IMG/VR virus record: IMGVR_UViG_3300045988_083295
Coordinates: 1-64,000 of that record
DNA length: 64,000 bases
From: a virus
Reading direction: 5' to 3' (one strand)
The translations under genes and the position numbers were made by a program. A model generated the notes under the pieces. That model worked only from the letters and a program-made list of their open reading frames with translations, had not been told where the DNA came from and did not search any database. Of this stretch, positions 16,471 through 63,069 are shown piece by piece (within the stretch, counting starts at the first letter, position 1; the number at the start of each line of letters is the position of its first letter).

Positions 16471-17055
16471 ATGGACAATAAAAACGAAGATACGAGCATA
16501 TTGCGTAATATCGCTTATGTGATGCAGATTATACTCTTCATAATCTGCATTGCTTACACATATCGCAACTATCGCCTTCATTCGGGTACGGATGATGTAT
16601 CCTTACGTGTGGATACCCTATATGTTACGCGAACGGAACGAGTGGGTTCGCCAACAGTACGCGATAGTGTTGTGCTCAGATTCAAAACAATCCCTGTCGT
16701 GAACGAAGCGATGCGTCCAGACACAGCCATGACCGATACAGCCTCCGATGTTGTTGGAATAGAGGCTTCACGTGATAGCGTGAATATTCCCATCGTTCAG
16801 CACGTCTATGCAGATACGCTGCACAATGGAATATCGTATCAGGCTTGGGTGAGCGGATACGATGCGAGTCTTGACTCCATCTGTATCAATTCGCGCACAC
16901 AGACCCTTACCAGGGAAATGCGCATACGCTCTCCCACTGATGAAGCTCATTCGAAGACAAGGAGATTCGGATTGGGCATTGTTGGCGGATGGGGAATAAC
17001 ACAGCATGGTTTCTCGCCATTCTTGGGGGTTGGCGTGACATATAGACTATATTGA
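16471..17055 (+). CDS. Hypothetical membrane-anchored protein.
   Basis: ATG start. N-terminal hydrophobic helix (IAYVMQIILFIICIAYTY). Confidence 0.6.
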   Translation: MDNKNEDTSILRNIAYVMQIILFIICIAYTYRNYRLHSGTDDVSLRVDTLYVTRTERVGSPTVRDSVVLRFKTIPVVNEAMRPDTAMTDTASDVVGIEASRDSVNIPIVQHVYADTLHNGISYQAWVSGYDASLDSICINSRTQTLTREMRIRSPTDEAHSKTRRFGLGIVGGWGITQHGFSPFLGVGVTYRLY

Positions 17056-24397: not shown

Positions 24398-26410
24398 ATG
24401 GCGAACGCAAAGAAACTTCATTCCCTTAAGAACGTTCGAGTTGAAGACTCAATGGAAGAGAACGACATTGACAGCGTGGCCTACGCCAAGGCCCGAAGAC
24501 CTGCCCGTGCCTATGACATCCTTCTCGAAGCGAAGACTTACTGGGACAACATGGACTTCTACCGAAAGGAGCGTGAACGTTGTAAGAACTACAACTTCGG
24601 CAAGCAATGGGATGATATGATTGAGGTTGATGGCGTGCGCATGTCTGAAGAGAAGTACATTCACAGTATGGGCAATGTAGCCCTCAAGAACAACCTCATC
24701 AGACGCTTGGTTCGTAACGTGATCGGTGTCTATCGCTCGCAGGACAAGGAACCTACATGCATGGCACGTGACCGTGCCGAACAGAAGGAGGCCGAAACGC
24801 TCAGCACCATCCTGCAATACAACATGCAGACCAACCGCATGAGTGAGATGTATGCTCGCACCATGGAGGAATTCCTCATCGGTGCTTTCATTGTCCACAA
24901 GAAGTGGTGGGGATGGAAGGATAGCCGTCAGGACTGTTGGACGGACAATGTCAATCCGAGAAGGTTCTTCATTGACACCAATGCCCGCGACATGAGAGGA
25001 TGGGACGTGACGTGTGTTGGTGAGATTCACGATGTGACGTTTGGTGAACTTGCGTCCAATTTCGCCACTAATCCGCAGGATTATGAGCGACTGTCGCAGA
25101 TATACCATGCGGCTCATCAGATGAAGCCCAATGGCGTGATGTTCCGTAATACGTTCGGTATGCCTGACACGAAGAGTTTCGATTTCCTCTTCAGTGAGGA
25201 TGAATCGCTGTGCAGGGTCATCGAAGTGTGGCGCAAGGAAACCAAGCCCCGTTACCGCTGTCACGACTGGAACACCGGCCAGATGTTCCGAATTGACGTG
25301 GAGGATTACGCGGAAGTCGTGGAGGCGGAGAACAAGCGTAGGCTTGAGATGGGGCAGAGCGTCGGCATGGATGCTGATGACATTCCTCTCATTGAGGCGG
25401 AGTGGTACGTTGACAACTACTGGTACTTCTACTATCTCAGCCCATTCGGCGATGTGCTTGGTGAAGGAGAGACACCTTACGCCCATGGCAGTCACCCTTA
25501 CGTGTTCAAGGCTTATCCATTCATTGATGGCGAGATACATTCCTTCGTCTCTGATGTGATAGACCAACAGCGTTACACCAACCGACTCATCACCCTTTAC
25601 GACTGGGTGATACGTGCAAGTGCCAAGGGTGTGCTTCTTGTGCCTGATGACTGTATCCCCGATGACGTTAGCCCAGAACAGTTTGCGGATTCGTGGACAC
25701 GTGTGAATGGTGTCGTGTTGTATAAGGCCAAGCCGGGCGTTCCTGCTCCTACTCAGGTTGCCCAGAATTCAACCAATGTCGGTATTGGTGACCTGCTCAA
25801 TGTGCAGCTGAAGTTCTTCGAGGATATCAGTGGCGTGCATGGCGCGCTCCAAGGACGCAAGGGCGTAAGCGGTGAGAGTGGTGCTCTCTACGCCCAACAG
25901 ACGCAGAACGCAACGACCTCATTGCTAGACATTCTTGATTCGTTCTCTCAGTTCGAGATTGATGCTGCTTATAAGGATATCAAGAATATCCAGCAGTTCT
26001 ACGATGCCAAGCGTGTTACCAATATCGCTGGAGACGATTCCAGGACGTTCAGTGCGGACCCTGAGAAGGTTCTACAGATTGAATGCGACATCAGCATTAC
26101 GGAAAGTTCTACTTCACCAGCTTATAGGGACAATGCCAATCAGATGCTTCTCCAGTTCTGGCAGGCCAATCAGATTACGCTCAAGCAATTGCTTGAGGTA
26201 GGCAAATTCCCCTTCGCAGACGAGTTGCTTCAGAATATTGAAAGTCAGGAGCAACAGATGGCCAATGGTGAGCAGGTGCAAGGTATTGACCCGTCTGTGA
26301 TGCAGCAAGCAGCCCAAGAGGGCAATCCGAGCACAGCAGACAGAATCTACGACCTTATCAGAAGCGGTGATAGCGGCAATGTTCAACAACCTAATCAGAT
26401 GGCACAATGA
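24398..26410 (+). CDS. Portal protein.
   Basis: 670 aa. The N-terminal motif YNFGKQWDD and overall layout are typical of podovirus-type portals. Sits among head genes. Confidence 0.7.
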   Translation: MANAKKLHSLKNVRVEDSMEENDIDSVAYAKARRPARAYDILLEAKTYWDNMDFYRKERERCKNYNFGKQWDDMIEVDGVRMSEEKYIHSMGNVALKNNLIRRLVRNVIGVYRSQDKEPTCMARDRAEQKEAETLSTILQYNMQTNRMSEMYARTMEEFLIGAFIVHKKWWGWKDSRQDCWTDNVNPRRFFIDTNARDMRGWDVTCVGEIHDVTFGELASNFATNPQDYERLSQIYHAAHQMKPNGVMFRNTFGMPDTKSFDFLFSEDESLCRVIEVWRKETKPRYRCHDWNTGQMFRIDVEDYAEVVEAENKRRLEMGQSVGMDADDIPLIEAEWYVDNYWYFYYLSPFGDVLGEGETPYAHGSHPYVFKAYPFIDGEIHSFVSDVIDQQRYTNRLITLYDWVIRASAKGVLLVPDDCIPDDVSPEQFADSWTRVNGVVLYKAKPGVPAPTQVAQNSTNVGIGDLLNVQLKFFEDISGVHGALQGRKGVSGESGALYAQQTQNATTSLLDILDSFSQFEIDAAYKDIKNIQQFYDAKRVTNIAGDDSRTFSADPEKVLQIECDISITESSTSPAYRDNANQMLLQFWQANQITLKQLLEVGKFPFADELLQNIESQEQQMANGEQVQGIDPSVMQQAAQEGNPSTADRIYDLIRSGDSGNVQQPNQMAQ

Positions 26411-28723: not shown

Positions 28724-30856
28724 ATGGCAACGATTTATTGTAGATTCGTTGGTGTCGTAACCGCAGATGGTTTTGCTTCTATAGGGAAGGCTGAGAAGGG
28801 TGATGTTTACCAAGTCTCAGAACCCTTCTCTATTGGTGGCAAGAGATATGATTCGGGTTTCCACGTTGTCTGCGAACAATCCTTTTCATCGAAGATTACT
28901 CCAGATGAATCACATTGGAAGGCATTCGATAGGGTAGAGGTTGAGCTTTACAGAGTCGGTGGTAAGTCTTACAACACGGCATGTTTCCCATTCCCGACCT
29001 ATAAGGTTAGCGGAGCGAAGGGGTACATATTCACTGGAGGTACTTATCATGAAGTCCAACAGGTATCAAAAGACGCATTTGCGGCAAACGAGGGTATCTT
29101 TCTTGAGAGCGAAGAAGGGAATAGCAGTGCGACCTTTCTTGTCGGAGGCGATGGTGTGAATACCTCTCCGTCTTGGTGGAAGGGTAACACAGAGAGCATC
29201 AGTGTTTTGCCACAAGGCTCTATTCTTATTCTTGGCCCATCAACTACTTCCAATGACGTCGGATTCTTTATTCCAGCGGATGGTGTAACGACATTATACC
29301 CAAATCATGCATATATTGTAACAAACAAAAATATGGCAGATAAAACTTATATTCAATTTACTGGCCGTCTGAAGGCCACAAGCCAAGAGGGTATCTTGGC
29401 CGAGGCTCAGCAGATTGCCATCTCAGGAAGTGATAACACTAATGTCAAGCAGTACATTGACAACAAGATCTCTTCCGTTAACAATAACATCAATTCTGTA
29501 GCAGGAAGCGTGTATCGCCCGAAGGGTAGCATAACCTTCGCAGGACTTAAGGCGTTGGCTTCGGCTACGGCAGGTGACGTGTACAATGTGACTGACGCAT
29601 TCACGCTTGGTTCCAAGAGTTATCCTGCTGGTTCCAACGTTGCGTGCCTCAAGTCATTCTCTTCCGCTGTCACTCCCAGTGAGACCTACTGGGACGTGCT
29701 CGCTGGATTCGTAGACCTCTCTCCGTATGCCAAGACTTCTGAGGTGAGCACCATCAAGGGTAACCTTGAGAAGTCCATCTCAGACAATGTGTCAACGCTC
29801 ACTACGAAGGTCGGCACGGCTCAGACTACGGCCAATGCCGCGAAGTCGGCAGCTTCCACCAATGCAGGTGAAATCACCAAGATCAAGACTCGTGTATCTT
29901 CTTTGGAGGGTGTTGGCGCTCAGGCCAATGTCATCGAATCCGTGAAGGTCAATGGCTCGGCTCTTCCTATCTCTAACAAGAGTGTGAATGTTGACCTCAG
30001 TGCTTATACCAAGACAACGGAACTCGACAACAGAATCAACTTGAAGAGTGAAAGCGGTGGCTATAAAAGCGTGTCAATCTTTGGTGGCGCGGTTAGGTTG
30101 TCTGTAGGAACAGATGTCAACCATCAACAGATTAACATTGGTGACGGAGTCGTTATCGGTACTAACGTAGAAATCCGTACTGGCGTAAAAATTAGTCTAG
30201 GCGGAAACGGTAGACTTCAGCTCATTGGTAATACTGTTAAAGATATTGCCAATGTTGAAGACTTAGCCGGATACGTACAGAAGGTGTCAGGCAAGGGCTT
30301 GTCATCAAACGACTATACGAGTGCTGAGAAGACCAAGCTTGCAGGTATCGCCTCTTCGGCTCAGGTGAACGTCATCGAATCTGTCAAAGTCAATGGTTCG
30401 GCATTGGCCGTTGCTAACAAGGCCGTGAACATTGACCTCTCTTCTTACGCCAAGGGTTCGGATGTCGACAGACTGAAGAAAATGACCAAGAAGTTTGTTG
30501 CTCTTCCGTTTACGTTCGGCATCGAAGTCGGAACTCCTACGTTTGAAAGTAGTTCGATTACTATCAATGGCGAGACCACGGTCTACTACAGCAAGGCTGG
30601 CAAGACTTTCTACGTGCAGTCTAACATGAAGAATTACAAAAGTTGGGCTAATTCTGCTGGTTTCCCGGGTAAAGTGGAGTATAACGATGAGAATATTCTC
30701 TTCCTTGAGACCACCACGAAAGGGTTGTACATGAAGACCGCAGATGGTCTTGTGCTCTGCAATCAGAGTATTGTCAGTGGTTATGCGACCACTTCTGCTC
30801 TGAAGGCCGCTGAGAATCGTATCACCGCACTTGAGAACCTTCTCAAGCTTGCATAA
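28724..30856 (+). CDS. Tail fibre protein with internal duplications.
   Basis: NVIESVKVNGSAL..NK.VN.DLS.Y occurs twice. GDVY.V...F..G.K.Y..G..V.C..SFSS..TP also occurs twice. Confidence 0.7.
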   Translation: MATIYCRFVGVVTADGFASIGKAEKGDVYQVSEPFSIGGKRYDSGFHVVCEQSFSSKITPDESHWKAFDRVEVELYRVGGKSYNTACFPFPTYKVSGAKGYIFTGGTYHEVQQVSKDAFAANEGIFLESEEGNSSATFLVGGDGVNTSPSWWKGNTESISVLPQGSILILGPSTTSNDVGFFIPADGVTTLYPNHAYIVTNKNMADKTYIQFTGRLKATSQEGILAEAQQIAISGSDNTNVKQYIDNKISSVNNNINSVAGSVYRPKGSITFAGLKALASATAGDVYNVTDAFTLGSKSYPAGSNVACLKSFSSAVTPSETYWDVLAGFVDLSPYAKTSEVSTIKGNLEKSISDNVSTLTTKVGTAQTTANAAKSAASTNAGEITKIKTRVSSLEGVGAQANVIESVKVNGSALPISNKSVNVDLSAYTKTTELDNRINLKSESGGYKSVSIFGGAVRLSVGTDVNHQQINIGDGVVIGTNVEIRTGVKISLGGNGRLQLIGNTVKDIANVEDLAGYVQKVSGKGLSSNDYTSAEKTKLAGIASSAQVNVIESVKVNGSALAVANKAVNIDLSSYAKGSDVDRLKKMTKKFVALPFTFGIEVGTPTFESSSITINGETTVYYSKAGKTFYVQSNMKNYKSWANSAGFPGKVEYNDENILFLETTTKGLYMKTADGLVLCNQSIVSGYATTSALKAAENRITALENLLKLA

Positions 30857-30862
30857 CCAATT

Positions 30863-30901
30863 GCAGCACCCTGCATCCCCTTGTGGGGTGCTGCCCTTTT
30901 C
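30863..30901 (+). terminator. Terminator after the fibre gene.
   Basis: GCAGCACCC/GGGTGCTGC 9-bp stem followed by CCCTTTTC. Confidence 0.6.
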
Positions 30902-30921
30902 AAACAAACAATAAACTACAC

Positions 30922-31818
30922 ATGAGAAAGACAAGGTGCTCCATCGTCATTACAGCATACAATGTTGACCGCTACATCAAGCAGTGCGTAGACAGCGCGC
31001 TGAATCAGACAGAACCTTGCGAGGTTATCGTTGTGGCCGACTGTCCTACTGACAATACAAAGGATATTCTTGCTTCGTATGGCAAGAAAATCAAATTGGT
31101 GAATCACTTATGCAACCAAGGCGCCGGCCAATCACGTAGGGATGGCATCAGCCATGCTACGTCAGAGTTTGTTCTTCTTCTGGACGGAGATGATTACATT
31201 GACAGAGACTTTGTAAAGCAATTGGTAGCCAAGGCTGACAAGACGGGTGCCGACATTGTCAGTGGCGGTATCCGCATATTGAACGAAGATGGTTCATGGA
31301 ATGCGACCTCTTACGGAGAGTGCATCACGGAAGGCCGCGACAAGGTGACCAAATTCTGGGGCGAGAGAATTGTCTTCATGAATAACAAAATAATCAAAAG
31401 ATCCCTTTACGAAACCGTTCCCTACTGCAATAGGCGATACATTGAGGATACGCCCACGATAATTCCTATCATGTTCTATGCGAACAAGGTTGCTTACGTG
31501 GACAATATCGGATACACGTATCGCATGAATCCCCAATCGCTCACCCACACTTCGAACCTCATGAAAGACTTGATCTACAAGGGGCTGTGTTGGCTTGATA
31601 TGGTGGATTTCTTTAACGAGCATGACAAGGGTATGTTCGAGGCCATTGATATCATTGGCTATCTCCGTAACATTATCGGTACGCTCAACAAGGTGCATAT
31701 CACGGATACAATGATTGTTCCCTACAAGAAACAATGGGATGAATTCATTCTTCGATTGATGAATTGCATTGAGATTACCAATGTGAATATTATTGATGGG
31801 GTAAAGGGGTGTAACTGA
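30922..31818 (+). CDS. Family 2 glycosyltransferase.
   Basis: SIVITAYNVDRYIKQCVDSALNQT, then VIVVADCPTDNT, then LLLDGDDYID (DxD). First ATG after the terminator. Confidence 0.8.
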   Translation: MRKTRCSIVITAYNVDRYIKQCVDSALNQTEPCEVIVVADCPTDNTKDILASYGKKIKLVNHLCNQGAGQSRRDGISHATSEFVLLLDGDDYIDRDFVKQLVAKADKTGADIVSGGIRILNEDGSWNATSYGECITEGRDKVTKFWGERIVFMNNKIIKRSLYETVPYCNRRYIEDTPTIIPIMFYANKVAYVDNIGYTYRMNPQSLTHTSNLMKDLIYKGLCWLDMVDFFNEHDKGMFEAIDIIGYLRNIIGTLNKVHITDTMIVPYKKQWDEFILRLMNCIEITNVNIIDGVKGCN

Positions 31819-31863: not shown

Positions 31864-32787
31864 ATGGCAAACGTATCATGGAGCAGCCTTGAAGGGAACT
31901 TTTTTCGCATAGATGTTGGCACAAGCAAGGCCAGCGCGCTTACCGTAACGGACAATACCATTCTGCATATCTGCACGGATGGCGCAATCGTGATGAATGG
32001 AGAGACCATTGCCGAACGCAATGCAGACCTTTCTGGTTATATGCAGAAGTCGGGCGGTACGTTTACGGGTAACGTGAATGTTGGTTCTACTTCCACCAAC
32101 CGAAATATGTATGTTTATGGCCTAACGAGTTTGCAGGGGAATGTGACAATCGGTAACGCGACCACGAACAAGACTCTCAAGGTCTACGGCAAGGCCAGCA
32201 CCACGAGTGATTTGACAGTTGGCGGTTCGTTGGCTGTCACCTCAGATAGGATCACCCTGAAGAACAATGGTTACTCAGTCTATCTGTATAAGCCCACAGA
32301 CGAATACTTCTACCTCTTGATGTCCAACAAGAACGGATCGACATGGAACGACCTTCGACCGTTGACCATCAACATGACCAACGGATGGATGTCGCTTGCA
32401 AGTGGTGCGATGACATTGGTCAACAACGGCGATGTGAAAGTGGCCAATACCCTGACGGCAACCAAATTGGTTCAGACCAGCACCTCAGACCTTCGTGCCA
32501 AGGAAAATCTCAATGCAGACTTTGACGCGTTGGCGAAGTTGCGCGAGTTGGGCGATGTGTATGAATTCGACTACAAGGCTGACGGCAAGCATAGCTATGG
32601 CCTTATTGCCCAGAATGTGGAACAGTCGGAGTTGAAGGATATGGTTGGCTATGTTGATAAGGATGATCCTGATTCGCTTCGGTATGTCAATTATCTTGAC
32701 CCTAGAATTACGGCACTTCTTATCAAGAGTGTCAGGCAGTTGCAGGATGAGGTGACCAAACTTCGTTCTGAGCGATTAAAAGAATGA
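31864..32787 (+). CDS. Tail fibre or spike with a C-terminal intramolecular chaperone (peptidase S74-type) domain.
   Basis: C-terminus SDLRAKENL...YEFDYK...YGLIAQNVE...LIKSVRQLQDEV matches the endosialidase-type auto-cleaving chaperone. Confidence 0.75.
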   Translation: MANVSWSSLEGNFFRIDVGTSKASALTVTDNTILHICTDGAIVMNGETIAERNADLSGYMQKSGGTFTGNVNVGSTSTNRNMYVYGLTSLQGNVTIGNATTNKTLKVYGKASTTSDLTVGGSLAVTSDRITLKNNGYSVYLYKPTDEYFYLLMSNKNGSTWNDLRPLTINMTNGWMSLASGAMTLVNNGDVKVANTLTATKLVQTSTSDLRAKENLNADFDALAKLRELGDVYEFDYKADGKHSYGLIAQNVEQSELKDMVGYVDKDDPDSLRYVNYLDPRITALLIKSVRQLQDEVTKLRSERLKE

Positions 32788-32791
32788 TACG

Positions 32792-33325
32792 ATGATTAAT
32801 GTAACAACAAGCGGTGGCAACATGGCTGTCAATGCAGGTGCGGCTGTTGGTGTTGGCGTGTTCTACGAGGAGATGTTGCAGGTGTTCTTTGACCTGCGAT
32901 GGGCGGTGGCTTTCATCGGTATCCTTGTTCTCACGGATTTTTGGCTCGGTCTGACCGCCAGTGTTCGTGTACGTGGGGAGGACTTCCGCTTCAGTAGGGC
33001 ATTGCGAAGAACAACAACCAAGTTCTTGGAGTATGTCTGCTACATCGTGTTCGGTGTATTGCTAGTCAAGGCTTGCATTGAGCCATTCGGTATTGGCAGT
33101 GATCTCATGGGTGGCGCGATTGGCGCAAGCGTGGGCTTCATTGCTGAGTTTGACAGCATATATGGACACTTCTGTGACCTGCATGGAATCAAGAGGCGTA
33201 TATCCCTGAAGCGCATCTTTGTGGCATGGCTCAAGCAGAAGAACGAAGGTGTCGGTGAGGCCGTAGAGCAGGCATTAAATGAATCTGAAAAAGAAGCAGG
33301 AAATGAAACGAATAGCAACACATAA
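32792..33325 (+). CDS. Holin-like membrane protein.
   Basis: Three hydrophobic helices and a charged C-terminal tail. Lies directly upstream of the lysis enzymes. LTDFWLGLTAS...TTKFLEY resembles the holin 4_1 family. Confidence 0.6.
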   Translation: MINVTTSGGNMAVNAGAAVGVGVFYEEMLQVFFDLRWAVAFIGILVLTDFWLGLTASVRVRGEDFRFSRALRRTTTKFLEYVCYIVFGVLLVKACIEPFGIGSDLMGGAIGASVGFIAEFDSIYGHFCDLHGIKRRISLKRIFVAWLKQKNEGVGEAVEQALNESEKEAGNETNSNT

Positions 33326-33848
33326 CAGTGTGACGGGGGAGAAGGGCAAGGGATTGCTCTCCTTCCTTGTTGCTCCATTTTCCAAGTGTCAGAGCAAGAC
33401 TTTGGAAGAGCAGTATGATGCAGGATGCCGATTCTTCGACATTCGTACATGGTTGCGACCTGATGGTATATGGGTGTGCGGCCATGGAATGTGGACGGCT
33501 AAGATTACGCTATCCGATGTGCTGGATTTCTTCTTGAAGCATGAGGATGCCTATTTCAGTATTACCATTGAGAAGGGTGAACTGGATGAGTATGCCAACC
33601 AGCTGCTATACGATTTCGGATTCATCAATGGATGTCATCTTCGATATCAACTGGCGTACATTGCGGTCAAGAAGCCTCAGTGGCGTATTGTGAAGAGCTT
33701 TTACGATATGAATATCGCTGAGGGTTATAAGAATCTTGATGGAAGGTCTTGGCACACTTACCTTCCTATTCCTTGGCTATGGAAGAAGATCTACTACAAC
33801 AAGCCGGTATTCCTTAACAGCATATACGTGATGGTTGACTTCCTCTAA
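33303..33848 (+). CDS. PLC-like phosphodiesterase (PI-PLC X-domain-like).
   Basis: IATHNS (catalytic His context), then GCRFFDIR, then VCGHG, matching the PI-PLC X-box pattern GTHDS...G[IV]R[YF]xD[IL]R...HG. An alternative start is at 33279. Confidence 0.6.
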   Translation: MKRIATHNSVTGEKGKGLLSFLVAPFSKCQSKTLEEQYDAGCRFFDIRTWLRPDGIWVCGHGMWTAKITLSDVLDFFLKHEDAYFSITIEKGELDEYANQLLYDFGFINGCHLRYQLAYIAVKKPQWRIVKSFYDMNIAEGYKNLDGRSWHTYLPIPWLWKKIYYNKPVFLNSIYVMVDFL

Positions 33849-33864
33849 TAATACTATATAACTT

Positions 33865-34434
33865 ATGGCAAACTTCAATACTTACGCCCAGTTTCTGCAA
33901 TCGTGGGAAGGTGGGTATGTTAATGACAAGGATGACAGCGGTGGCGCAACGATGTGTGGTGTGACCATCGCTGCGTGGACTAGCTATTGCCGTCAGCATG
34001 GCATGCGCGCCACGACGCAGACTCTTCGCTCCATGACCAAGGAACAGTGGGGTGAGATCATGAAGAACGGATATTGGGATGCCGTGTGGGGTGACCATAT
34101 CCACAGTCTGAGCATTGCTTCGATGATGGCCGATTGGGCCATCAATTCAGGACCCAAGAGGGTTGTCAAGTATGTTCAGCGGATTCTTCCCGGTATCTCT
34201 GTTGACGGGATCATGGGTCCGAAGACCTTGAACCGAATCAACGCGATGAAGCCTTCTGTGTTGTTTGCCGAGATTCGCAAGGCAAGGCTTAACTACTACG
34301 CCGGCCTTGCCGAGAAGGATGAGCGCAAGAAGAAATATCTGGAAGGATGGAACAATCGCGTGAATGCGATGCAGTTTGGTGTGCTTGTGTGCAACGACAA
34401 GAAGCACACCAAGATTACTTGGAGCGAATCATAA
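33865..34434 (+). CDS. Endolysin: GH108 lysozyme domain plus a PG_binding_3 domain.
   Basis: WEGGYVNDKDDSGGATMCGVT (GH108 signature). The C-terminus DWAINSGPKRVVKYVQRIL..VDGIMGPKT is the peptidoglycan-binding domain. Confidence 0.9.
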   Translation: MANFNTYAQFLQSWEGGYVNDKDDSGGATMCGVTIAAWTSYCRQHGMRATTQTLRSMTKEQWGEIMKNGYWDAVWGDHIHSLSIASMMADWAINSGPKRVVKYVQRILPGISVDGIMGPKTLNRINAMKPSVLFAEIRKARLNYYAGLAEKDERKKKYLEGWNNRVNAMQFGVLVCNDKKHTKITWSES

Positions 34435-34455
34435 CATTACAATTGACGCAATAAT

Positions 34456-34779
34456 ATGGAAGGACGCAAGACCGGTGGACGCAAGAAAGGGACTCCCAAC
34501 AAGCAGAAACCTTCGCAACAGATTATACACGGCATACTCACTCAGACTGTAGGCGAATACTTCGAATCCGATGAATTTGCTGCGGATATGGCTCAGCTTG
34601 AACCAAAGGACAGACTGTTGGTGATGGAGCGTTTGGCGCAATATATTTTACCCAAGCAGCAAGCTCAGAAGGTGGAAATGAATGCCACGGCCAATGTCGC
34701 ACCTTCCTTTGCTGCACAATTGCGTGATCTCGCTTCACAATATGAATCACCATCCACGACTGAGGATCAAAAGGAATAA
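34456..34779 (+). CDS. Hypothetical protein with a basic GGRKKGTPNK N-terminus.
   Basis: 107-aa ORF. TAATG overlap with the next gene. Confidence 0.55.
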   Translation: MEGRKTGGRKKGTPNKQKPSQQIIHGILTQTVGEYFESDEFAADMAQLEPKDRLLVMERLAQYILPKQQAQKVEMNATANVAPSFAAQLRDLASQYESPSTTEDQKE

Positions 34780-40031: not shown

Positions 40032-40063
40032 AAAAAAACTCCCAACACTGTTGTGTCGGGAGT
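40032..40063 (-). terminator. Rho-independent terminator of the hicAB operon (minus strand).
   Basis: On the minus strand: ACTCCCGACAC aaca GTGTTGGGAGT followed by TTTTTTT. Confidence 0.7.
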
Positions 40064-40107
40064 CTAAGCCCATGATGGGGCTTGGCGTTAAATAATAGTA
40101 CTAGGTG

Positions 40108-40527
40108 CTATCTTATAATGGATAGATATTCACCAATATGGCGAATACCTTCTAATATTCGAATATGTTGTTTCTCTCTTGGCTTTTTCAATCCAGTTGC
40201 GTAGTGGTTGAGCAAAGCCGGATTGATACCAGTTACCCTAGATATAGCTATCAGGGTTGTATATTTCTCAGCCTTGCGAATCAGAGCGGCAGTGCTTAAT
40301 GTTTCAACGAAAGCATAATCACCATCCACCAACCATTTAGGCAAGTGTTCGCCATCTTCCAATAATCCTTCCACATGAGAGGATATGGCCTCACGTAGAT
40401 TAGAGATAAGCTCTTCATAAGTCCTGCCAGTAGCAATGACCATACCGCACAAACGATCATCCTCTGTGACGGCAGAGAAGTTCTTATCACACCAATCTAT
40501 AATAATCTTGATATTCTCCATTTTCAT
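40108..40527 (-). CDS. hicB: HicB-family antitoxin with a C-terminal HTH.
   Basis: N-terminal HicB-like fold pattern (FSAVTEDDRLCGMVIATGRTYEELISNLREAISSHVE) plus a C-terminal HTH. Directly downstream of hicA. Confidence 0.7.
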   Translation of the reverse strand: MKMENIKIIIDWCDKNFSAVTEDDRLCGMVIATGRTYEELISNLREAISSHVEGLLEDGEHLPKWLVDGDYAFVETLSTAALIRKAEKYTTLIAISRVTGINPALLNHYATGLKKPREKQHIRILEGIRHIGEYLSIIR

Positions 40528-40569
40528 TAAGGGTTAAAGATATGGGCGCAAACACACCCATATCTTAGT

Positions 40570-40770
40570 TTACTTGTTCCAACCAGCTTGTTTCCAAATG
40601 CTGTGGGTTAGTTCTTCTCCCAAGGTATCGCTTAATTTGCCGTTAACGGTTACGCGACCCTTCTTCGTCTCATGCTTGAACTGACGATGTGATGTCCCTG
40701 TTCTTTTGCATAGATACCAGCCATCGTCTAACAACAGCTTGATAATTTCTTTTACCTTGTATTTTCTCAC
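40570..40770 (-). CDS. hicA: HicA-family mRNA interferase toxin.
   Basis: 66 aa. GTSHRQFKH...GRVTV...LSDTLGEELTHSIWKQAG matches the HicA/YcfA pattern. Confidence 0.8.
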   Translation of the reverse strand: MRKYKVKEIIKLLLDDGWYLCKRTGTSHRQFKHETKKGRVTVNGKLSDTLGEELTHSIWKQAGWNK

Positions 40771-40795
40771 ATAGCGAAACTATTATTTAACGCTG

Positions 40796-40803
40796 CAAAG
40801 GTA
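40796..40803 (-). promoter_or_regulatory. -7 box TACCTTTG for hicAB (minus strand).
   Basis: TAnnTTTG match with a CTTG -33-like element 20 nt upstream (plus-strand coordinates 40824-40827). Confidence 0.5.
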
Positions 40804-40919
40804 AGTATTTATTTACTTCCAACCAAGAAAATATTCATAAAAGTATTGAAATATTTACCATATAAGATAATGGACGTAATAAGGGTGCTTGAATCCTTGC
40901 GGACGTTGTTTTAAATTCG

Positions 40920-40927
40920 TATCTTTG
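40920..40927 (+). promoter_or_regulatory. -7 box TATCTTTG (plus strand), divergent from the hicAB promoter.
   Basis: TAnnTTTG with CTTG at 40896-40899 (20-nt spacing). Shares CTTTGCAGCGTT with the hicAB promoter in inverted orientation. Confidence 0.5.
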
Positions 40928-40933
40928 CAGCGT

Positions 40934-41033
40934 TTGTTGGTTCGGCATTCTCATCACGTTGAACAACATATTCTTCGTTTCCTTCCGCGTAAGCAGAGGG
41001 GGAATCCCACGCCTTGTCAGCGTGGGGTTTTTT
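40934..41033 (+). ncRNA. Candidate sRNA of about 100 nt (promoter plus terminator, no ORF).
   Basis: Bounded by the 40920 promoter box and the terminator CCCACGC cttgtca GCGTGGG GTTTTTT (41006-41033). Contains no ATG. Confidence 0.4.
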
Positions 41034-41037
41034 GTTT

Positions 41038-42246
41038 CTAATAACTACCCTCGCCAAATACATATTCTATCAGAGTCTTGTTGGCTTCATTGATCGCTGA
41101 GTAATCTTTCTTGACGTAAAGATTCGTTACCCTCATGGACTCGTCTATGTGGCACAACATGTCGTTGACTATATATATAGGTATCCTCACGTCATTGACC
41201 GAGATGGTGGCCATCGAATGGCGAGCAGAGTAAAATTGCAATCTGTCCACACCGATTTCCTCCCCAACCTTCTTCAAGCCGTAACTTAGGGCATCGTTGA
41301 AGGTTTTGGATGTTGAATAACGGTCAGCGAAGTTCAATACATTCTCTCCGTCAGACTTGCTCAAGTACTCATCCAGTATAGGCTTGATGATAGCAGGAAC
41401 GTGAACGACCATCTTTGCGCCATCACTTCTTCTGTCGCGTGTTTTCGTCCGGTAATAGGTGATGGTCTTGCCGTCATAGTCGGTGAGATTGTATAGGTCT
41501 ATGGCGTTAATGCCCATCAGACAAAACGATATAAGGAAACAGTCGCGTGCCTGGTCGAACAGACCTTTGTCTCCATGTCGGGGAAGGTTCATGATTCTTC
41601 GGATCACGTCAACTTCTACTGCACGCTTTTCGGCCACATTCTGTTTAGGCAGTTTGAAGCCCGACAAGGACTCCTTGATTCGGATCACGTTGTTGTCGTA
41701 GTCGTTGTAATAGTTCCTCGCATCGTTGAATATCTTGACAATGGCGTTGGTATATAGAGATTTAGCACGTTTCTTGTCACCGAGATATTTGACGTAGTCG
41801 TTCATACGTGAGACGGTTATTTCGTTCATGAGAATCTTTCTGCCTCCGTGGAAGCGGATAAACGAACGGACAGCCGACCGATAATTGAGTATGCCCTTCT
41901 TACTCTCATTCTCAGAGAGCCATCTGGAACAATAGTCGGTGAAGTATATGCCAGTAGACTCATCCTTCATCTTCAATCGTTCTACGATTCTATCGAATGG
42001 TATGTCGTTTAACTCCAGCATAAGCGTGTTGAGTTTCCTTCTATACTCTCTGATAAGGTCGTCGCCTCTGTCTAGAATCTGCTGGTTCTTAATCTTGAAT
42101 GAGGCAGTTAGGTCTTTCTTCATCTGCGCGATCATAGTAGTCGGCAGATAAGTGACATGCTTGCCATGTGTGTAGCGAACGTACACAGTAAAAGTACCGT
42201 CCGCTCTCATTCTGTCCTTGCGGACGAGCAATTTAAAATTGTCCAT
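41038..42246 (-). CDS. int: Tyrosine site-specific integrase (Bacteroidota phage-integrase type).
   Basis: N-terminal arm-binding-like domain, a SAM-like core-binding domain, and C-terminal ARHSMAT ... LCH ... TNLY motifs (R, H, Y). Confidence 0.85.
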   Translation of the reverse strand: MDNFKLLVRKDRMRADGTFTVYVRYTHGKHVTYLPTTMIAQMKKDLTASFKIKNQQILDRGDDLIREYRRKLNTLMLELNDIPFDRIVERLKMKDESTGIYFTDYCSRWLSENESKKGILNYRSAVRSFIRFHGGRKILMNEITVSRMNDYVKYLGDKKRAKSLYTNAIVKIFNDARNYYNDYDNNVIRIKESLSGFKLPKQNVAEKRAVEVDVIRRIMNLPRHGDKGLFDQARDCFLISFCLMGINAIDLYNLTDYDGKTITYYRTKTRDRRSDGAKMVVHVPAIIKPILDEYLSKSDGENVLNFADRYSTSKTFNDALSYGLKKVGEEIGVDRLQFYSARHSMATISVNDVRIPIYIVNDMLCHIDESMRVTNLYVKKDYSAINEANKTLIEYVFGEGSY

Positions 42247-42265
42247 AATTCTTCGTTTTGAGTGT

Positions 42266-42329
42266 TTGGAAAACTATTGGAAAAATTTGTGGCAAACCTT
42301 TGTTGGTTACTTGTGGTATATTTCGTCTA
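42266..42329 (+). repeat. Direct repeat copy 1 upstream of int (candidate arm-type site or attP component).
   Basis: TTGGAAAActAtTGGAAAAATTTGtGG ... CTTGTGGtaTaTTTcGTCTA. Related copy at 42542-42595. Confidence 0.5.
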
Positions 42330-42541
42330 CAAGTTTCCCTCATTCGTTTTTTAGCGTTACAGAAATGTATAGCTAAACGCTTGATTATCAGCTTGAGTAC
42401 CAGCTTTATCTCTGAGAATCAACCTTTATTTTTTATGTAGTTCAGCAGGGGGGGAGAACCCTAGGCTATCAGATTGCGATGCTATCGTTATCTATACATA
42501 AGCCGTTGATAATCAGCCTTGTTTGTTTGGTTTACCTGTAA

Positions 42542-42595
42542 ATTGGAAAAATAGTGGAAAAATTTGGGTTGAATGCTTGTGGATTTTTAGTCTAA
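42542..42595 (+). repeat. Direct repeat copy 2.
   Basis: TTGGAAAAaTAgTGGAAAAATTTGgG ... CTTGTGGaTTTTTaGTCTA. Confidence 0.5.
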
Positions 42596-42655
42596 CATCT
42601 ATGCCTTGTTGACGATGATTCCCATAATGGTTGCGTGTGCAAGGTTCGCGTTAGT

Positions 42656-43336
42656 TTAGAAGTCGGAATCTTCTTGAATAAAATCGGCTATTGGATCGTA
42701 TGATAAAATCAAGTACAATCGCTCAACATTGTCTTTCCCTTTTGCTCGCGTGAGTGTTATGTCACCGTACATAGTTACGCCATTTTCCTCCTCGCCTATG
42801 AATTCATAGCATTTATAGCCTAAACTGTTCTTATATCCAAATATCTGATATTTATTCTCAAGTTTATTCTTTAGATACTCTCTGCTACGCTTCATCGGTT
42901 CCGCTTCACTTACAGGCTTCCATTTCTGAAATTCCGCTCTATAAAATCTCGCAACACCATCAACCCATTGAAAATACAAAGTACCACAGTCAAATGAAAA
43001 ATCGCCCATTTCAAAATTGAACAATGTGAGATTTCCGCTATCTTCAGACAATTGATAGCCGTAACGCTCTCGTAGCGCATTCTTTGCATTTGAATAACTC
43101 TCACCAACTTTTATCCCAAGCACAGATTGGGCAAATGTCGAAACTGCAAAAGCAGTCATCATTACTGTCAACAATAGAAATCTTTTCATTTTCTCCCCTG
43201 GTTTACTACGACGTACATTGCCTATATAATTTGACAACGTAGCTCTTTCAGTACCTATAGCCTTAGCAAAAGCTGCTTTATCACCATTAAAGCGTTCATT
43301 TACAAGCATTTCAATACGGTCATTAATTGTTTCCAT
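42656..43336 (-). CDS. Chimeric ORF: truncated XRE/CI-type HTH (about 45 aa) fused in frame to a signal-peptide or TM segment and a beta-rich domain of about 175 aa.
   Basis: GDKAAFAKAIGTERATLSNYIG is an HTH. It is followed by MKRFLLLTVMMTAFAVSTFAQ. An internal ATG could also give a separate secreted protein. Confidence 0.6.
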   Translation of the reverse strand: METINDRIEMLVNERFNGDKAAFAKAIGTERATLSNYIGNVRRSKPGEKMKRFLLLTVMMTAFAVSTFAQSVLGIKVGESYSNAKNALRERYGYQLSEDSGNLTLFNFEMGDFSFDCGTLYFQWVDGVARFYRAEFQKWKPVSEAEPMKRSREYLKNKLENKYQIFGYKNSLGYKCYEFIGEEENGVTMYGDITLTRAKGKDNVERLYLILSYDPIADFIQEDSDF

Positions 43337-43416
43337 ATCTTATTTTTTAATTCGTTAATTCTATCTTTTAAATCATCTTTAGTCACCCACCTTGCGATGG
43401 GTGACTAATTGTATCA

Positions 43417-44202
43417 CTATATGCACGTTCGGATCAATCCCATTACCCGATACAGTCTGATGACATCGTACTTGGGTACGTGGAAGGAGACGTAACGTGA
43501 TTGGTTGTTCGTACTTTGACATTCGTATTCGTTGCCCCTGTCTATCAGAATTCTAATGAACAATCCGTGGTTCTTTGTATCCATCGCGTATATGTTACCG
43601 TTGAGGATATAAGTGTCTTTGGACAGCGCGCTGATGGCAACCTTGTCCCCTACCTTGAAGTCTGGGAGCATCGACTCATCTTGCACTTCCATGTACATCT
43701 GATATTCAGAGAATCCCGAAAAATAGGGTATCAATTCAACTCCTACTTGCTTCTTGTTTACTATTGACTCATACACATCTGTGTTTGTTTTTTTATAGAG
43801 GTTCATGGGGATGAGAGGCCGCACCTTGCTTCCTGCATCCTCAATCTCCATAGGTTCAATTCGCCTCTCTGCATAATTATTATGATTGACATTCGTGGCG
43901 AACATGGTTGCGCCGGGCGAATATAAGTTGCGTTGTTCCACGCTCGCCCCAACCGCAGGTATCTTCACCTGCCTCTCTTGTTGTGGACAAAGCATTTCTC
44001 CTTCGCCAGTTATTACCCAATTCATGTTTAGCTGCGGGTTAGCTGCTTCTATTTTGGATAATGTTTTCTTCGTTATATTCTGTTTTCCTTTTAGCATTCG
44101 TGCAAAATTAGCCGGATCTACACCTGCATTTTTGGCGAATGCGTTTACACTACTTTCTATCGTATAGATGTACTTAATGAGGTTATCTGCTATACTAGAC
44201 AT
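43417..44202 (-). CDS. CI-like repressor (N-terminal HTH plus C-terminal S24 LexA-like peptidase domain).
   Basis: HTH AFAKNAGVDPANFARMLKG and WVITGEGEM. S24 motif VQDESMLPDFKVGDKVAI. C-terminus aligns to lambda CI by eye. Confidence 0.8.
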   Translation of the reverse strand: MSSIADNLIKYIYTIESSVNAFAKNAGVDPANFARMLKGKQNITKKTLSKIEAANPQLNMNWVITGEGEMLCPQQERQVKIPAVGASVEQRNLYSPGATMFATNVNHNNYAERRIEPMEIEDAGSKVRPLIPMNLYKKTNTDVYESIVNKKQVGVELIPYFSGFSEYQMYMEVQDESMLPDFKVGDKVAISALSKDTYILNGNIYAMDTKNHGLFIRILIDRGNEYECQSTNNQSRYVSFHVPKYDVIRLYRVMGLIRTCI

Positions 44203-47114: not shown

Positions 47115-47188
47115 GGGACTTTAGCTCAGACGGTCAGAGCAGCTGACTCATAATCAGAAGGTCGCGAGTTCAAGCCTCGCAGGTCCCA
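47115..47188 (+). tRNA. tRNA with CAT anticodon (Met, or Ile2 if lysidine-modified).
   Basis: Hand-folded cloverleaf: GGGACTT/AGGTCCC, D arm GCTC-AGACGGTCA-GAGC, anticodon loop CTCATAA, T arm GCGAG-TTCAAGC-CTCGC. 74 nt, no encoded CCA. Confidence 0.85.
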
Positions 47189-47244
47189 CCGCTTTTGGAG
47201 TTCTTGTTAAGGTGTTTTTGTGGCAGCCCGGAAAGACGGGCACG

Positions 47245-47316
47245 GACTGAATAGCTCAACGGACAGAGCATCCCCCTCCTAAGGGGAAGATGAGGGTTCG
47301 ATTCCCCCTTCAGTCA
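47245..47316 (+). tRNA. tRNA-Arg (CCT).
   Basis: GACTGAA/TTCAGTC, D arm GCTC-AACGGACA-GAGC, anticodon arm TCCCC-CTCCTAA-GGGGA, T arm GAGGG-TTCGATT-CCCCC (one A-C mismatch). 72 nt. Confidence 0.8.
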
Positions 47317-47359
47317 CTATGAGATTTTCAACATTACTAATCGAATAAGACGAAGAATC

Positions 47360-48391
47360 ATGAACAATTCTGAAAGTAACCTTATGGAAGTCGTTCCTGC
47401 TGAGGTACAGATCATCAAAGCCAAGCAGGACGCGGAATTTGCCATGACCACCGCAGGTCAGATGTTGCGGTCGTTCGAGGCCACGCAACGCATCGCGAAG
47501 ATGTATGCCACCAGTTCACTTATACCGGCTTCTCTCAAGGGTGACCCGAACAAGGAGTTCGGCACCCCCGAACAGAAGGTTCAGGCCGCTATGCAGAAGA
47601 CTTACGCCAACTGCACGATTGCATTGAACATGGCACAGCGCATGAACGCTGACCCCCTCATGGTCATGCAGAATCTTTACATTGTTCACGGCCAGCCTTC
47701 CTTTTCCTCCAAGTTTCTTATTGCTTGCATCAACAAGTGTGGCCGCTATGCTCCGCTGCGCTACGAGTTCAAGGGCGAGCAAGGCACGGACGATTACGGG
47801 TGTCGCGCTTACACTTATGAGACCTCGGACGTGAAGCACAAGGAACCCATCTACGGCACTTGGGTCACAATGGGAATGGCCAAGAAGGAAGGTTGGACAA
47901 CGAAGAACGGCAGCAAGTGGCTGACCATGCCCGACCAAATGCTCATCTATCGCGCAGCCGCCTTCTTCCAGCGCAGTAACTGCCCTGAAATCAGTATGGG
48001 CTTGAGTACTTCCGAAGAACTTCAGGACATGGGCGAACAACCCGTATATGTTGAGGAAGTGAAGGACAACGACTTGAGTTCCCTCGCTATGAAGCGCATG
48101 AAGAGACCTGCTGCCATCGCTCAAGCCGAGGCTGGAACCGCCGGCATTCGGCTTCACAAAGATCAAGCTGCCATCGCTCAAGCCGAGGCCACAACTGTAG
48201 ATGGAAGAAAAGATCCAGCTGAAGCTGAAGAGGCTGAAGGTGCTCCTGCACCGCAAGGCAATCCCTTCGAGCAAGCCGAAGAAGTCAATGAACAGGCCGC
48301 AGAAGTCAATGAACAGGCCGCAGCTAAAGAACAGTCCGAAGCAACGCAGCAGAATGCGGCCAATCAGAATAACCGCCCTTCTCTTCTCTAG
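47360..48391 (+). CDS. RecT/Red-beta-superfamily single-strand annealing protein with a repetitive acidic C-terminal tail.
   Basis: SSLIP..., NLYIVHGQPSFSSKF, and WLTMPDQMLIYRAAAFFQRSNCPE. Paired with a YqaJ exonuclease. Confidence 0.7.
   Translation: MNNSESNLMEVVPAEVQIIKAKQDAEFAMTTAGQMLRSFEATQRIAKMYATSSLIPASLKGDPNKEFGTPEQKVQAAMQKTYANCTIALNMAQRMNADPLMVMQNLYIVHGQPSFSSKFLIACINKCGRYAPLRYEFKGEQGTDDYGCRAYTYETSDVKHKEPIYGTWVTMGMAKKEGWTTKNGSKWLTMPDQMLIYRAAAFFQRSNCPEISMGLSTSEELQDMGEQPVYVEEVKDNDLSSLAMKRMKRPAAIAQAEAGTAGIRLHKDQAAIAQAEATTVDGRKDPAEAEEAEGAPAPQGNPFEQAEEVNEQAAEVNEQAAAKEQSEATQQNAANQNNRPSLL
48281..48322 (+). repeat. Perfect 21-bp tandem duplication (EVNEQAA x2) in the SSAP tail.
   Basis: GAAGTCAATGAACAGGCCGCA at 48281-48301 and 48302-48322. 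A separate 23-nt repeat GCTGCCATCGCTCAAGCCGAGGC lies near 48103 and 48160. Confidence 0.8.
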
Positions 48392-59701: not shown

Positions 59702-59905
59702 ATGAAAATATCCAAATGGAAAATCACAGCCTTTATCGGGTGGATTGTAGCAACGCTCATCGTTGTCAGCACCACCATGAGAGGCATAAGTAAGGCCGAC
59801 ACGGCAACCAACCTCATCAGTGCAGCTGCACTGTTGGCATGGGTGCTGCTATCTCTTGCAACCAATTGTTTCACTTTTATAAATAACAAAAATGAGAAAA
59901 ATTAA
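59702..59905 (+). CDS. Small two-helix membrane protein.
   Basis: MKISKWKITAFIGWIVATLIVV ... AAALLAWVLLSLATN. 14-nt overlap with the SPFH gene. Confidence 0.5.
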   Translation: MKISKWKITAFIGWIVATLIVVSTTMRGISKADTATNLISAAALLAWVLLSLATNCFTFINNKNEKN

Positions 59906-62835: not shown

Positions 62836-63069
62836 ATGTGGTTAAAAGAAAGCAATAGACCTAAACACTTTGTTTACGCCATCCCGGCAGCATTTGTAGG
62901 AACTATCCTATTTGCTGCCGGGCTGGCAGTGGGCATGGAGTTCAAGGATAAGCAGTATGGTGGTGACTTCGACTGGCTCGACATCGCTGCAACGATTATT
63001 GGTGGACTTGTCGGACAGATATTGCAAGTGATGGCGATTTGGTCCATCCATTTTCTATTCTTAGAGTAA
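62836..63069 (+). CDS. Small membrane protein.
   Basis: Two hydrophobic helices. 77 aa. Confidence 0.5.
   Translation: MWLKESNRPKHFVYAIPAAFVGTILFAAGLAVGMEFKDKQYGGDFDWLDIAATIIGGLVGQILQVMAIWSIHFLFLE

Follow-up and report, generated by a model that had tools for sequence, protein, structure and literature searches.

A 64,000-nucleotide (nt) stretch of viral DNA (IMG/VR virus record IMGVR_UViG_3300045988_083295, positions 1 to 64,000; hereafter the window) carries at 32792-34434 three tightly packed plus-strand genes, which encode a putative holin, a small protein resembling phosphatidylinositol-specific phospholipases C (PI-PLCs) and a GH108 endolysin. The middle protein, here called PLC, has a PLC-like fold as judged from sequence profiles and structure modelling, and its intact active site makes catalysis by the PI-PLC mechanism likely. 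We tentatively favour the view that PLC is an accessory enzyme, co-expressed with the lysis genes, that would cleave head groups of envelope lipids as an optional helper of lysis and not as a universal spanin substitute. The functional part of this view draws on genomic context, which is suggestive and not statistically strong.

A minimal PI-PLC-like protein in the lysis cassette

The preliminary description of this region had proposed the order holin (from 32792), PLC of about 181 amino acids (aa) and GH108 endolysin, and the open reading frames (ORFs) were found as it had placed them. The holin gene (32792-33325, plus strand) codes for 177 aa with about three hydrophobic, putatively transmembrane segments and a charged C-terminal tail. 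The reading frame of PLC is open from 33279 (33279-33848, 189 amino acid codons); since its homologues begin at the second methionine (MK[KR]IATHNS), the gene was assigned to 33303-33848 of the plus strand, which gives 181 aa. Residue numbers below follow the 189-aa ORF. The gene overlaps the end of the holin gene by 23 nt and stops 16 nt before the start of the endolysin gene (33865-34434, plus strand). The 189-aa endolysin matches GH108 (76 bits) and PG_binding_3 (58 bits) in Pfam and endolysin family phrog_315 (E 3e-44). Neither PLC nor endolysin has a hydrophobic N-terminus: the endolysin is predicted to be soluble, with no signal or signal-anchor-release segment, and PLC contains neither signal peptide nor transmembrane segment.

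PI-PLC X-box hallmarks had been claimed for PLC, and all three motifs (IATHNS, QYDAGCRFFDIR and VCGHG) are indeed present. The Pfam family PF00388 (PI-PLC-X) is matched with 27.8 bits, above its cut-off of 23.1 (E 2e-6), and no GDPD family turns up in the same scan among matches of E 1 or lower. Built from 40 diverse homologues, a family profile matches solved bacterial PI-PLCs (E 4e-7). An AlphaFold2 model built on the alignment of these homologues (pLDDT 90, pTM 0.87) was compared with the PDB using Foldseek; the top 24 matches are all bacterial PI-PLCs, with probability 1.0. Their TM-scores are 0.40-0.63 when normalised to the query and 0.27-0.46 when normalised to the targets of 300 aa, and the latter values indicate that the barrel is partial. 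GDPD structures rank under every PI-PLC match (TM-score 0.33-0.39). Profile, model and structural search thus agree on the PLC-like fold that had been put forward.

The two histidines and the arginine on which the preliminary description had laid weight are retained as well. H15, D54 and R56 do not vary among the 40 diverse sequences, and H69 (conservation of at least 90%) is replaced by tyrosine in one of them. These four residues align to His32, Asp67, Arg69 and His82 of Bacillus cereus PI-PLC (hhalign). D54 and R56 are part of an FDIR motif, aligned to the FDIR motif of solved PI-PLCs. Also invariant are E98, K131 and D187, and a tryptophan-rich C-terminal motif, LPIPWLWKK, is conserved; it belongs to a conserved helix, PIPWLWKKIYY, which could bind membrane if situated at the rim of the active site. 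D187 belongs to a C-terminal VDFL strand that resembles the cellular MDF/QDY motif and lies outside every significant alignment; it is a candidate counterpart of Asp274, which partners the catalytic histidine from the last strand.

Comparison with cellular PI-PLC-like proteins of Bacteroidota gave an hhalign probability of 99% (E 7e-18). Confident alignment stops at about residue 135, and the stretch from the SWH motif to the last strand is missing relative to these homologues. PLC was said to lack a signal peptide and to be shorter than classical PI-PLCs, and it is (181 versus about 300 aa, no hydrophobic N-terminus). Judged by its sequence, it appears as a bare, shortened core of secreted cellular enzymes, a soluble 21-kDa protein devoid of export signal.

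This minimal form is typical of the whole PLC family, which comprises 220 clusters at 90% identity with lengths of consistently about 175-190 aa and no signal peptide in any part of the family. A search of 50%-identity representatives returned 1,947 matches at E <=1e-3, 131 of them at E <=1e-30. Among viral structures, an uncharacterised crAss-phage protein is the closest match, and homologues detected in the phage collection lie in Crassvirales. Among the comparison loci, that is, loci with PLC or holin homologues, numbered with the prefix L, two show irregular coding. The PLC frame of L035 (6001-6579) is interrupted by stops at sites of family glutamines (TQSK, EQY), an indication of stop-codon recoding. 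For L050, standard-code translation of the called gene fails to yield the query.

The enzyme superfamily itself is known; minimal architecture, phage distribution and repeated placement in lysis regions of Bacteroidota phages were not found described in the searched literature.

Lysis genes and spanin-like genes around PLC

The order holin-PLC-GH108 is kept in L004, L044-46, L052, L069/70 and L075-79, with PLC identity of 56-96%. The ratio of nonsynonymous to synonymous substitution rates (dN/dS) of PLC is 0.08-0.20, similar to that of its neighbours; PLC is under purifying selection in this lineage. Behind the endolysin gene lies a conserved gene for a 107-aa protein (ORF107; 34456-34779, plus strand), which travels with the PLC-GH108 block and is 98-100% identical in L004 and L069 and 82% identical in L046. 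When 4001-6007 of L069 is compared with 32792-34779 of the window, the holin is only 73% identical (dS 1.6) and PLC, GH108 and ORF107 are 94-98% identical. This step in identity links PLC to the endolysin block. The recombination breakpoint of L069 falls between holin and PLC-GH108-ORF107, so that the tail-fibre/holin side and the endolysin side seem to be exchanged as separate modules.

PLC also neighbours lysis genes of other types. L022 has the order holin-PLC-Amidase_3-u-spanin-like (genes with unimolecular-spanin architecture, see below), and the stop-codon-recoded L035 has PLC-Amidase_3. In L033, PLC is followed by two genes and then by holin_4_1-Amidase_3-DUF6549; in L138 it is found near Amidase_2. 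A u-spanin-like gene precedes PLC in L054, a DUF6549-like gene adjoins it in L027, and PLC occurs with DUF6808 in L120 and L130. PLCs of lysis regions represent at least four sequence lineages whose nearest relatives are found outside lysis regions, and PLC therefore entered lysis regions repeatedly. A tblastn search with holin and endolysin of the window, which found both in 1 of 40 IMG/VR loci, had suggested that the link to lysis was absent; this was overturned by annotation of neighbours, which revealed other holin and endolysin types.

The 177-aa holin itself has no family match in Pfam or PHROG. Its homologues form 14 clusters and directly adjoin four endolysin types: GH108 is the neighbour in L071 and L156, Amidase_2 in L073/74, L155 and L157 and the phrog_181 endolysin in L054, and in L069/70 PLC lies between the holin homologue and GH108. 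A weak hhalign match (E 1.6e-5, probability 79%, with no direct Pfam match) connects the holin with a group that includes a Phage_holin_4_1 member passing the Pfam cut-off. Comparison with the L022 holin was not significant; the same was true for the L033 holin in pairwise BLAST, where the link appears by profile-profile comparison only, and weakly. We accept the 177-aa product as a putative holin from its context and remote homology. A scan for sigma-70 promoters and terminators inside the cassette gave nothing informative, the model being ill-suited to Bacteroidota, and no match to the cassette was obtained by megablast in the phage collection.

The preliminary description reported no spanin-like pair. 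A search of the cassette and of the whole window likewise revealed no spanin-like gene, whether two-component or unimolecular. PLC, with no hydrophobic segment and no lipobox, is itself not a spanin. ORF107 (no Pfam or PHROG match, no transmembrane segment, no lipobox, basic N-terminus) is, from its sequence, predicted not to be one either. Several comparison loci do contain u-spanin-like genes, which code for 132-191 aa with N-terminal lipobox and C-terminal transmembrane segment and match no PHROG or Pfam family. They are located at 7461-8036 of L022, 5552-5977 of L054, 5107-5580 of L071, 4525-4995 of L073, 7347-7784 of L155, 4827-5309 of L156, 1166-1630 of L157 and 969-1418 of L023. All five cassettes that have the window-type holin and lack PLC (L071, L073/74, L155, L156, L157) bear such a gene, and window-type cassettes with PLC have none.

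This complementarity, together with the absence of a spanin-like gene from the window, would be expected if PLC replaced the spanin as third lysis component and enzymatically destroyed the outer membrane in spanin-less phages. We consider such a replacement quite improbable. PLC and a u-spanin-like gene occur together in L022 and L054, and PLC therefore does not simply exclude a spanin. The complementarity is moreover confounded by phylogeny, the cassettes without PLC residing on other contigs, most of them with an integrase. Most PLC genes are located far from lysis genes, and the window retains a DUF6808 gene (16471-17055, plus strand; PF20647, 83.9 bits) that offers another candidate. It follows the giant DarB-like gene, 16 kb from the cassette, and its product has an N-terminal transmembrane anchor and a glycine-rich C-terminus ending in an aromatic residue. 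In L044/45, the gene next after GH108 is a DUF6808 homologue; in Bacteroides phages BKO1-TP3 and BS-TP4, which are not among the PLC matches in the phage collection, a homologue immediately follows the amidase endolysin. Because its homologues follow endolysins in related Bacteroides phages, DUF6808 is more plausible than PLC as the conserved outer-membrane factor, and PLC looks like a later addition. By its position, the DUF6808 protein is a candidate Bacteroidota-specific envelope-spanning or outer-membrane lysis factor. The respective genes are at 6648-7127 in L044/L045, 2516-3082 in L158 and 2489-3037 in L159. Homology among DUF6808, DUF6549 and u-spanin-like proteins was considered and rejected, as they are not detectably related (hhalign probability 1-2%).

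Further observations weigh against the favoured view. Co-occurrence of the PLC family with lysis genes, which the preliminary description had suggested as a check, was not above chance. PLCs from 147 loci were clustered at 80% identity into 57 clusters, of which 38 were informative (at least 1.5 kb on both sides); L021, L035, L050 and L108, where the PLC ORF is uncalled, were excluded from the statistics. A lysis-type gene is present within three genes of PLC in 8 of the 38 clusters and a peptidoglycan hydrolase in 4; both counts are lower bounds, owing to the limited endolysin panel. About four-fifths of PLC clusters are thus away from lysis genes, with no enrichment (binomial P 0.16-0.65, under a crude null of one cassette per about 80 genes). 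Pfam scans of 281 neighbouring proteins added just one Amidase_2 and one DUF6808. The two largest PLC clusters are crAss-like, and there the neighbours of PLC are tRNA arrays or small genes without assigned function. Other contexts comprise RecT and a metallo-beta-lactamase (MBL) fold protein, dUTPase, CCA-adding enzyme, YopX and terminase, NAD salvage and glycosyltransferases. Flanks of lysis cassettes and tail fibres are known hot spots of accessory genes, and for this reason position alone is weak evidence.

To the same side belong distant full-length homologues at 3949-4542 of L055 and 5989-6588 of L056 (about 30% identity, catalytic residues intact), whose contigs are binned to metagenome-assembled genomes of Clostridia (Acutalibacteraceae, Oscillibacter); either the family reaches beyond phages of Bacteroidota or these contigs are mis-binned. 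Nothing relevant was found in the literature on phage PI-PLCs or on PLC-like enzymes in lysis cassettes or crAss-like phages. Finally, the inositol-binding region of bacterial PI-PLCs (Arg163, Asp198, Tyr200) has no confident counterpart in PLC. The inositol-binding set of classical PI-PLCs also includes Lys115. The conserved K131, D154 and W158/H159 of PLC could substitute for such residues; with the substrate-binding half of the barrel shortened, specificity for phosphatidylinositol or inositol sphingolipids is not established and is not claimed here.

The preliminary description went as far as to propose PLC as a lipid-directed third lysis component. This proposal is sustained in part: conserved synteny, low dN/dS, recurrence beside lysis genes in L022 and L035 and the u-spanin-like genes of cassettes devoid of PLC give a role in lysis some support. 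Its implication of spanin replacement is weakened by coexistence in L022 and L054, by DUF6808, by the low fraction of lysis neighbours (8/38) and by the truncated inositol-binding half.

A YfiM-like partner and possible substrates

The most frequent neighbour of PLC is a YfiM-like family of membrane proteins of 76-101 aa. It is directly adjacent to PLC in 7 of the 38 clusters (P 4e-5, or P 0.0025 if, conservatively, five are counted). In six loci (L027, L123, L130, L099, L151, L033) the two genes overlap by 4 nt at start and stop, and both gene orders occur. The family has conserved H11, E35, D38 and D49. Matches from its profile search carry PF13084 (DUF3943) and are named "YfiM (DUF2279 family)" in their source; the family is accordingly assigned to the Lipocone superfamily, for which action on phosphoesters of lipid head groups is predicted (PMC12419801). 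E. coli YfiM is reported to be a lipid-linked-oligosaccharide pyrophosphatase whose overexpression leads to osmotic lysis (bioRxiv 10.64898/2026.09.16.752124). In several phages, the pair of YfiM-like gene and PLC adjoins spanin-like, DUF6808 or DUF6549 genes. Coordinates of YfiM-like genes in comparison loci include 5687-5992 (L027), 5774-6004 (L130), 5741-6001 (L099) and 6537-6782 (L033). The window has its own copy, a YfiM/DUF3943-like (Lipocone) membrane protein of 77 aa (62836-63069, plus strand; phrog_38535), 29 kb from PLC and adjoining a dUTPase gene. It matches 105 phage records, 86 of which are Bacteroides phages; the rest include crAss-like phages, with annotation "putative lipoprotein" and identity of up to 79%.

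This pairing supports a lipid head group as the probable substrate of PLC. It also widens the range of candidates past inositol lipids to polyprenyl-phosphate-linked sugars, whose 2-hydroxyl could in principle serve the cyclising chemistry.

In the mechanism that we propose for PLC as an optional helper, it would be a cytoplasmic minimal phosphodiesterase of PI-PLC type, related to secreted enzymes of Prevotella and other Bacteroidales and encoded by an accessory gene that was inserted between holin and endolysin and became linked to the latter. It would probably be co-translated with the lysis genes late in infection. As PLC has no export signal and the endolysin is soluble, both may reach the envelope through the holin lesion. 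There, PLC would cleave phosphodiester-linked head groups having a neighbouring hydroxyl; candidate substrates are phosphatidylinositol, inositol- or glycerol-phosphoryl dihydroceramide, phosphatidylglycerol and polyprenyl-phosphate sugars. Released diacylglycerol, ceramide or polyprenol would destabilise bilayers and favour fusion, and could thereby help the envelope to break down at the last step, whether a spanin-like partner is present or not. Diacylglycerol and ceramide generally disorder bilayers and promote fusion. Suitable substrates exist in gut Bacteroidetes, which make phosphatidylinositol and inositol sphingolipids, including inositol-phosphoryl ceramide (PMC9246714).

A bolder form of this proposal has PLC, alone or with the YfiM-like enzyme, constituting a new class of enzymatic lysis effector for a diderm host. 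After holin triggering, head groups would be stripped from Bacteroidota envelope lipids (inositol- or glycerol-phosphoryl lipids and sphingolipids, or polyprenyl-linked precursors), and the diacylglycerol or ceramide so formed would rupture or fuse the membranes, in a "lipid step" reminiscent of mycobacteriophage LysB, and a lipoprotein-type spanin would become unnecessary in this lineage. We regard this extension as improbable.

The same neighbourhoods can be read without any lysis role. PLC, often with the YfiM-like enzyme, may remodel host membrane or envelope precursors from the cytoplasmic side by stripping head groups from inner-leaflet lipids or polyprenyl-phosphate-linked sugars, its place in the cassette being an incidental hot spot. 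Conceivable effects are altered display of capsule or surface glycans, superinfection block, shutdown of envelope synthesis or release of inositol phosphate. Signal peptides are absent from the entire PLC family, most PLC contexts are outside lysis regions and the YfiM-like protein is the only statistically robust neighbour. Glycosyltransferases recur nearby (a GtrB-like GT2 in the window; GT2, Gly_transf_sug and Caps_synth elsewhere), and levels of inositol and inositol phosphate in Bacteroides thetaiotaomicron affect capsule expression (PMC9246714). It speaks against such remodelling that PLC of the window lineage is wedged between holin and endolysin, overlaps the former and recombines with the latter as a block, and that L022 and L035 have PLC at the same insertion point beside another type of endolysin; the YfiM-like/PLC pair, too, is found beside spanin-like, DUF6808 or DUF6549 genes in several phages. 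On balance we find this alternative somewhat unlikely, although it is the main rival.

Two other explanations concern the target of the enzyme. Bacterial PI-PLCs are secreted and cleave glycosylphosphatidylinositol (GPI) anchors, and the closest cellular relatives of PLC, which come from Bacteroidales, are secreted as well, carry signal peptides and extend C-terminally past the catalytic domain. PLC could accordingly be an exo-acting factor freed by lysis, following the logic of Shiga toxin genes located beside lysis cassettes; having no export signal and residing in the cassette, it would depend on lysis for its release. Its targets would be PI- or GPI-type anchors or lipid-anchored receptors on debris, outer-membrane vesicles, neighbouring bacteria or gut epithelium, and progeny virions might benefit by being kept from adsorbing to debris. 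We consider this very unlikely: nothing indicates an extracellular target, many family members are encoded in regions that are not obviously late-expressed, and the tight pairing of PLC with an integral membrane protein, the YfiM-like one, suggests that it works within the infected cell.

The least probable explanation, in our opinion, is a non-lipid substrate, that is, a soluble or polymeric phosphodiester with a vicinal hydroxyl (glycerophosphodiesters, capsule or teichoic-like polymers, or a nucleotide-type immune signal). PI-PLC chemistry resembles that of RNase A and requires no more than an adjacent hydroxyl, the structural search ranks GDPD folds next after PI-PLCs, the barrel is reduced in its inositol-binding half, and some neighbours are of counter-defence type (an MBL-fold protein with faint Apyc1 match, NAD-salvage and toxin-antitoxin genes). 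PI-PLCs are nevertheless clearly above GDPD by both sequence and fold, and membrane proteins are enriched within two positions of PLC (22% versus 10%, P 7e-4). No precedent is known to us for an enzyme of PLC fold acting on nucleotide signals.

How Bacteroidota phages breach the outer membrane is poorly understood. The present analysis supplies a concrete set of parts: a holin family, soluble endolysins, u-spanin-like proteins, DUF6808, DUF6549, YfiM-like proteins and PLC. The PLC family is large and uncharacterised, and is present in crAss-like phages abundant in the human gut. If PLC does cleave inositol lipids, it would be the first enzyme of a phage directed against the unusual inositol phospholipids and sphingolipids that gut Bacteroidetes make, and would link phage infection to lipids that affect capsule, resistance to antimicrobial peptides and gut colonisation. 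Even with no role in lysis, it would represent an accessory enzyme, widespread in phages, that acts on the envelope of the host. With 181 aa it would be, to our knowledge, the smallest PI-PLC-type catalytic unit; this size bears on minimal requirements of the fold, and the protein may serve as a tool or as an enzybiotic partner for endolysins.

Host phage and comparison with known systems

A Bacteroidota host had been presumed for this phage, and the window agrees with it. The portal protein (24398-26410) shares 60% identity with its counterparts in the cultured Bacteroides phages BS-TP4 and BKO1-TP3. A single ORF of 5,095 aa occupies 1087-16374 (plus strand); in part it matches a protein of Bacteroides phage BKO1-TP3 annotated as "DarB-like antirestriction", with further matches to methyltransferase-annotated or hypothetical proteins of other phages. 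From the portal identity and the DarB-like match to cultured Bacteroides phages, the host is very probably Bacteroides. The Crassvirales matches of PLC and the 5,095-aa ORF had pointed to a crAss-like phage; this was ruled out, as portal, DarB-like protein and DUF6808 match Bacteroides phages BS-TP4, BKO1-TP3 and BF1-TP2.

A GC-poor block (GC 0.40-0.43) on the minus strand at 40108-44202 includes genes for a HicB-like antitoxin (40108-40527), an integrase-like protein with Phage_int_SAM_5 domain (41038-42246) and a repressor-like S24 (LexA/CI-type) peptidase-like protein (43417-44202), all on this strand. The block suggests a lysogeny module, and the phage is possibly temperate. A strong terminator-like hairpin is located at 40036-40065. 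Genes for tRNA-Met (CAT) and tRNA-Arg (CCT) at 47115-47317 (plus strand) lie just 5' of a RecT-like gene (47360-48391).

Two genes upstream of PLC, a family-2 glycosyltransferase with GtrB-like PHROG matches is encoded at 30883-31818 (plus strand). It is flanked by tail-fibre-like genes at 28724-30856 and 31864-32787, the second of which bears an S74 intramolecular chaperone domain. Glycosyltransferases are also found near PLC in L035, L044 and other scanned neighbours. An SPFH/Band-7 lipoprotein (phrog_200) is encoded at 59702-60674 (plus strand), preceded by a 67-aa protein with two transmembrane segments; a distantly related SPFH lipoprotein lies directly upstream of PLC in one crAss-like group (L014, 3908-4735).

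Among known enzymes, bacterial PI-PLCs (B. cereus/thuringiensis, S. aureus Plc, Listeria PlcA) are the best match of PLC by sequence and fold. THxS, FDxR and HG motifs align, and PLC shares with these metal-independent enzymes an arginine in place of the Ca2+ site. Bacterial PI-PLCs have about 300 aa and a signal peptide, whereas PLC has 181 aa and none, and the C-terminal half of its barrel, with inositol-binding residues and membrane-binding rim, is shortened. The closest cellular relatives are uncharacterised PI-PLC-like proteins of Prevotella, Muribaculaceae and other Bacteroidales (about 330-400 aa or longer), that is, of the same phylum as the host. Common to them and PLC are GTH[DN]SATGE, a Q-x-Q/K region, FDLR, HG and the SW(S)H motif. 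In contrast to PLC, these proteins are extended at the C-terminus and possess the catalytic domain in full length, with a signal peptide wherever the N-terminus was captured.

GDPD domains, some of which occur in tail proteins of phages with Gram-positive hosts, belong to the same superfamily of PLC-like TIM barrels and match the predicted fold less well. Phage GDPD domains are parts of large virion proteins, whereas PLC is a free 21-kDa protein with the catalytic motif pattern of PI-PLCs. Lipocone enzymes of the YfiM/VanZ type likewise concern phosphoesters of lipid head groups, but they are unrelated four-helix membrane proteins.

Spanins (Rz/Rz1; T1 gp11) resemble PLC in that it occupies the cassette position where a third lysis gene is expected. 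They are membrane-bridging fusogens, whereas PLC is a putative enzyme with no transmembrane segment or lipobox. A soluble enzyme of the lysis cassette that attacks a lipid layer outside peptidoglycan is known from mycobacteriophages, whose LysB has had its function demonstrated by experiment. The likeness is at the level of concept only. LysB, a mycolylarabinogalactan esterase, is an alpha/beta-hydrolase with a Ser-Asp-His triad that cleaves a carboxyl ester in another type of envelope. Given its predicted fold, PLC has in LysB at most a functional analogue and no relative.

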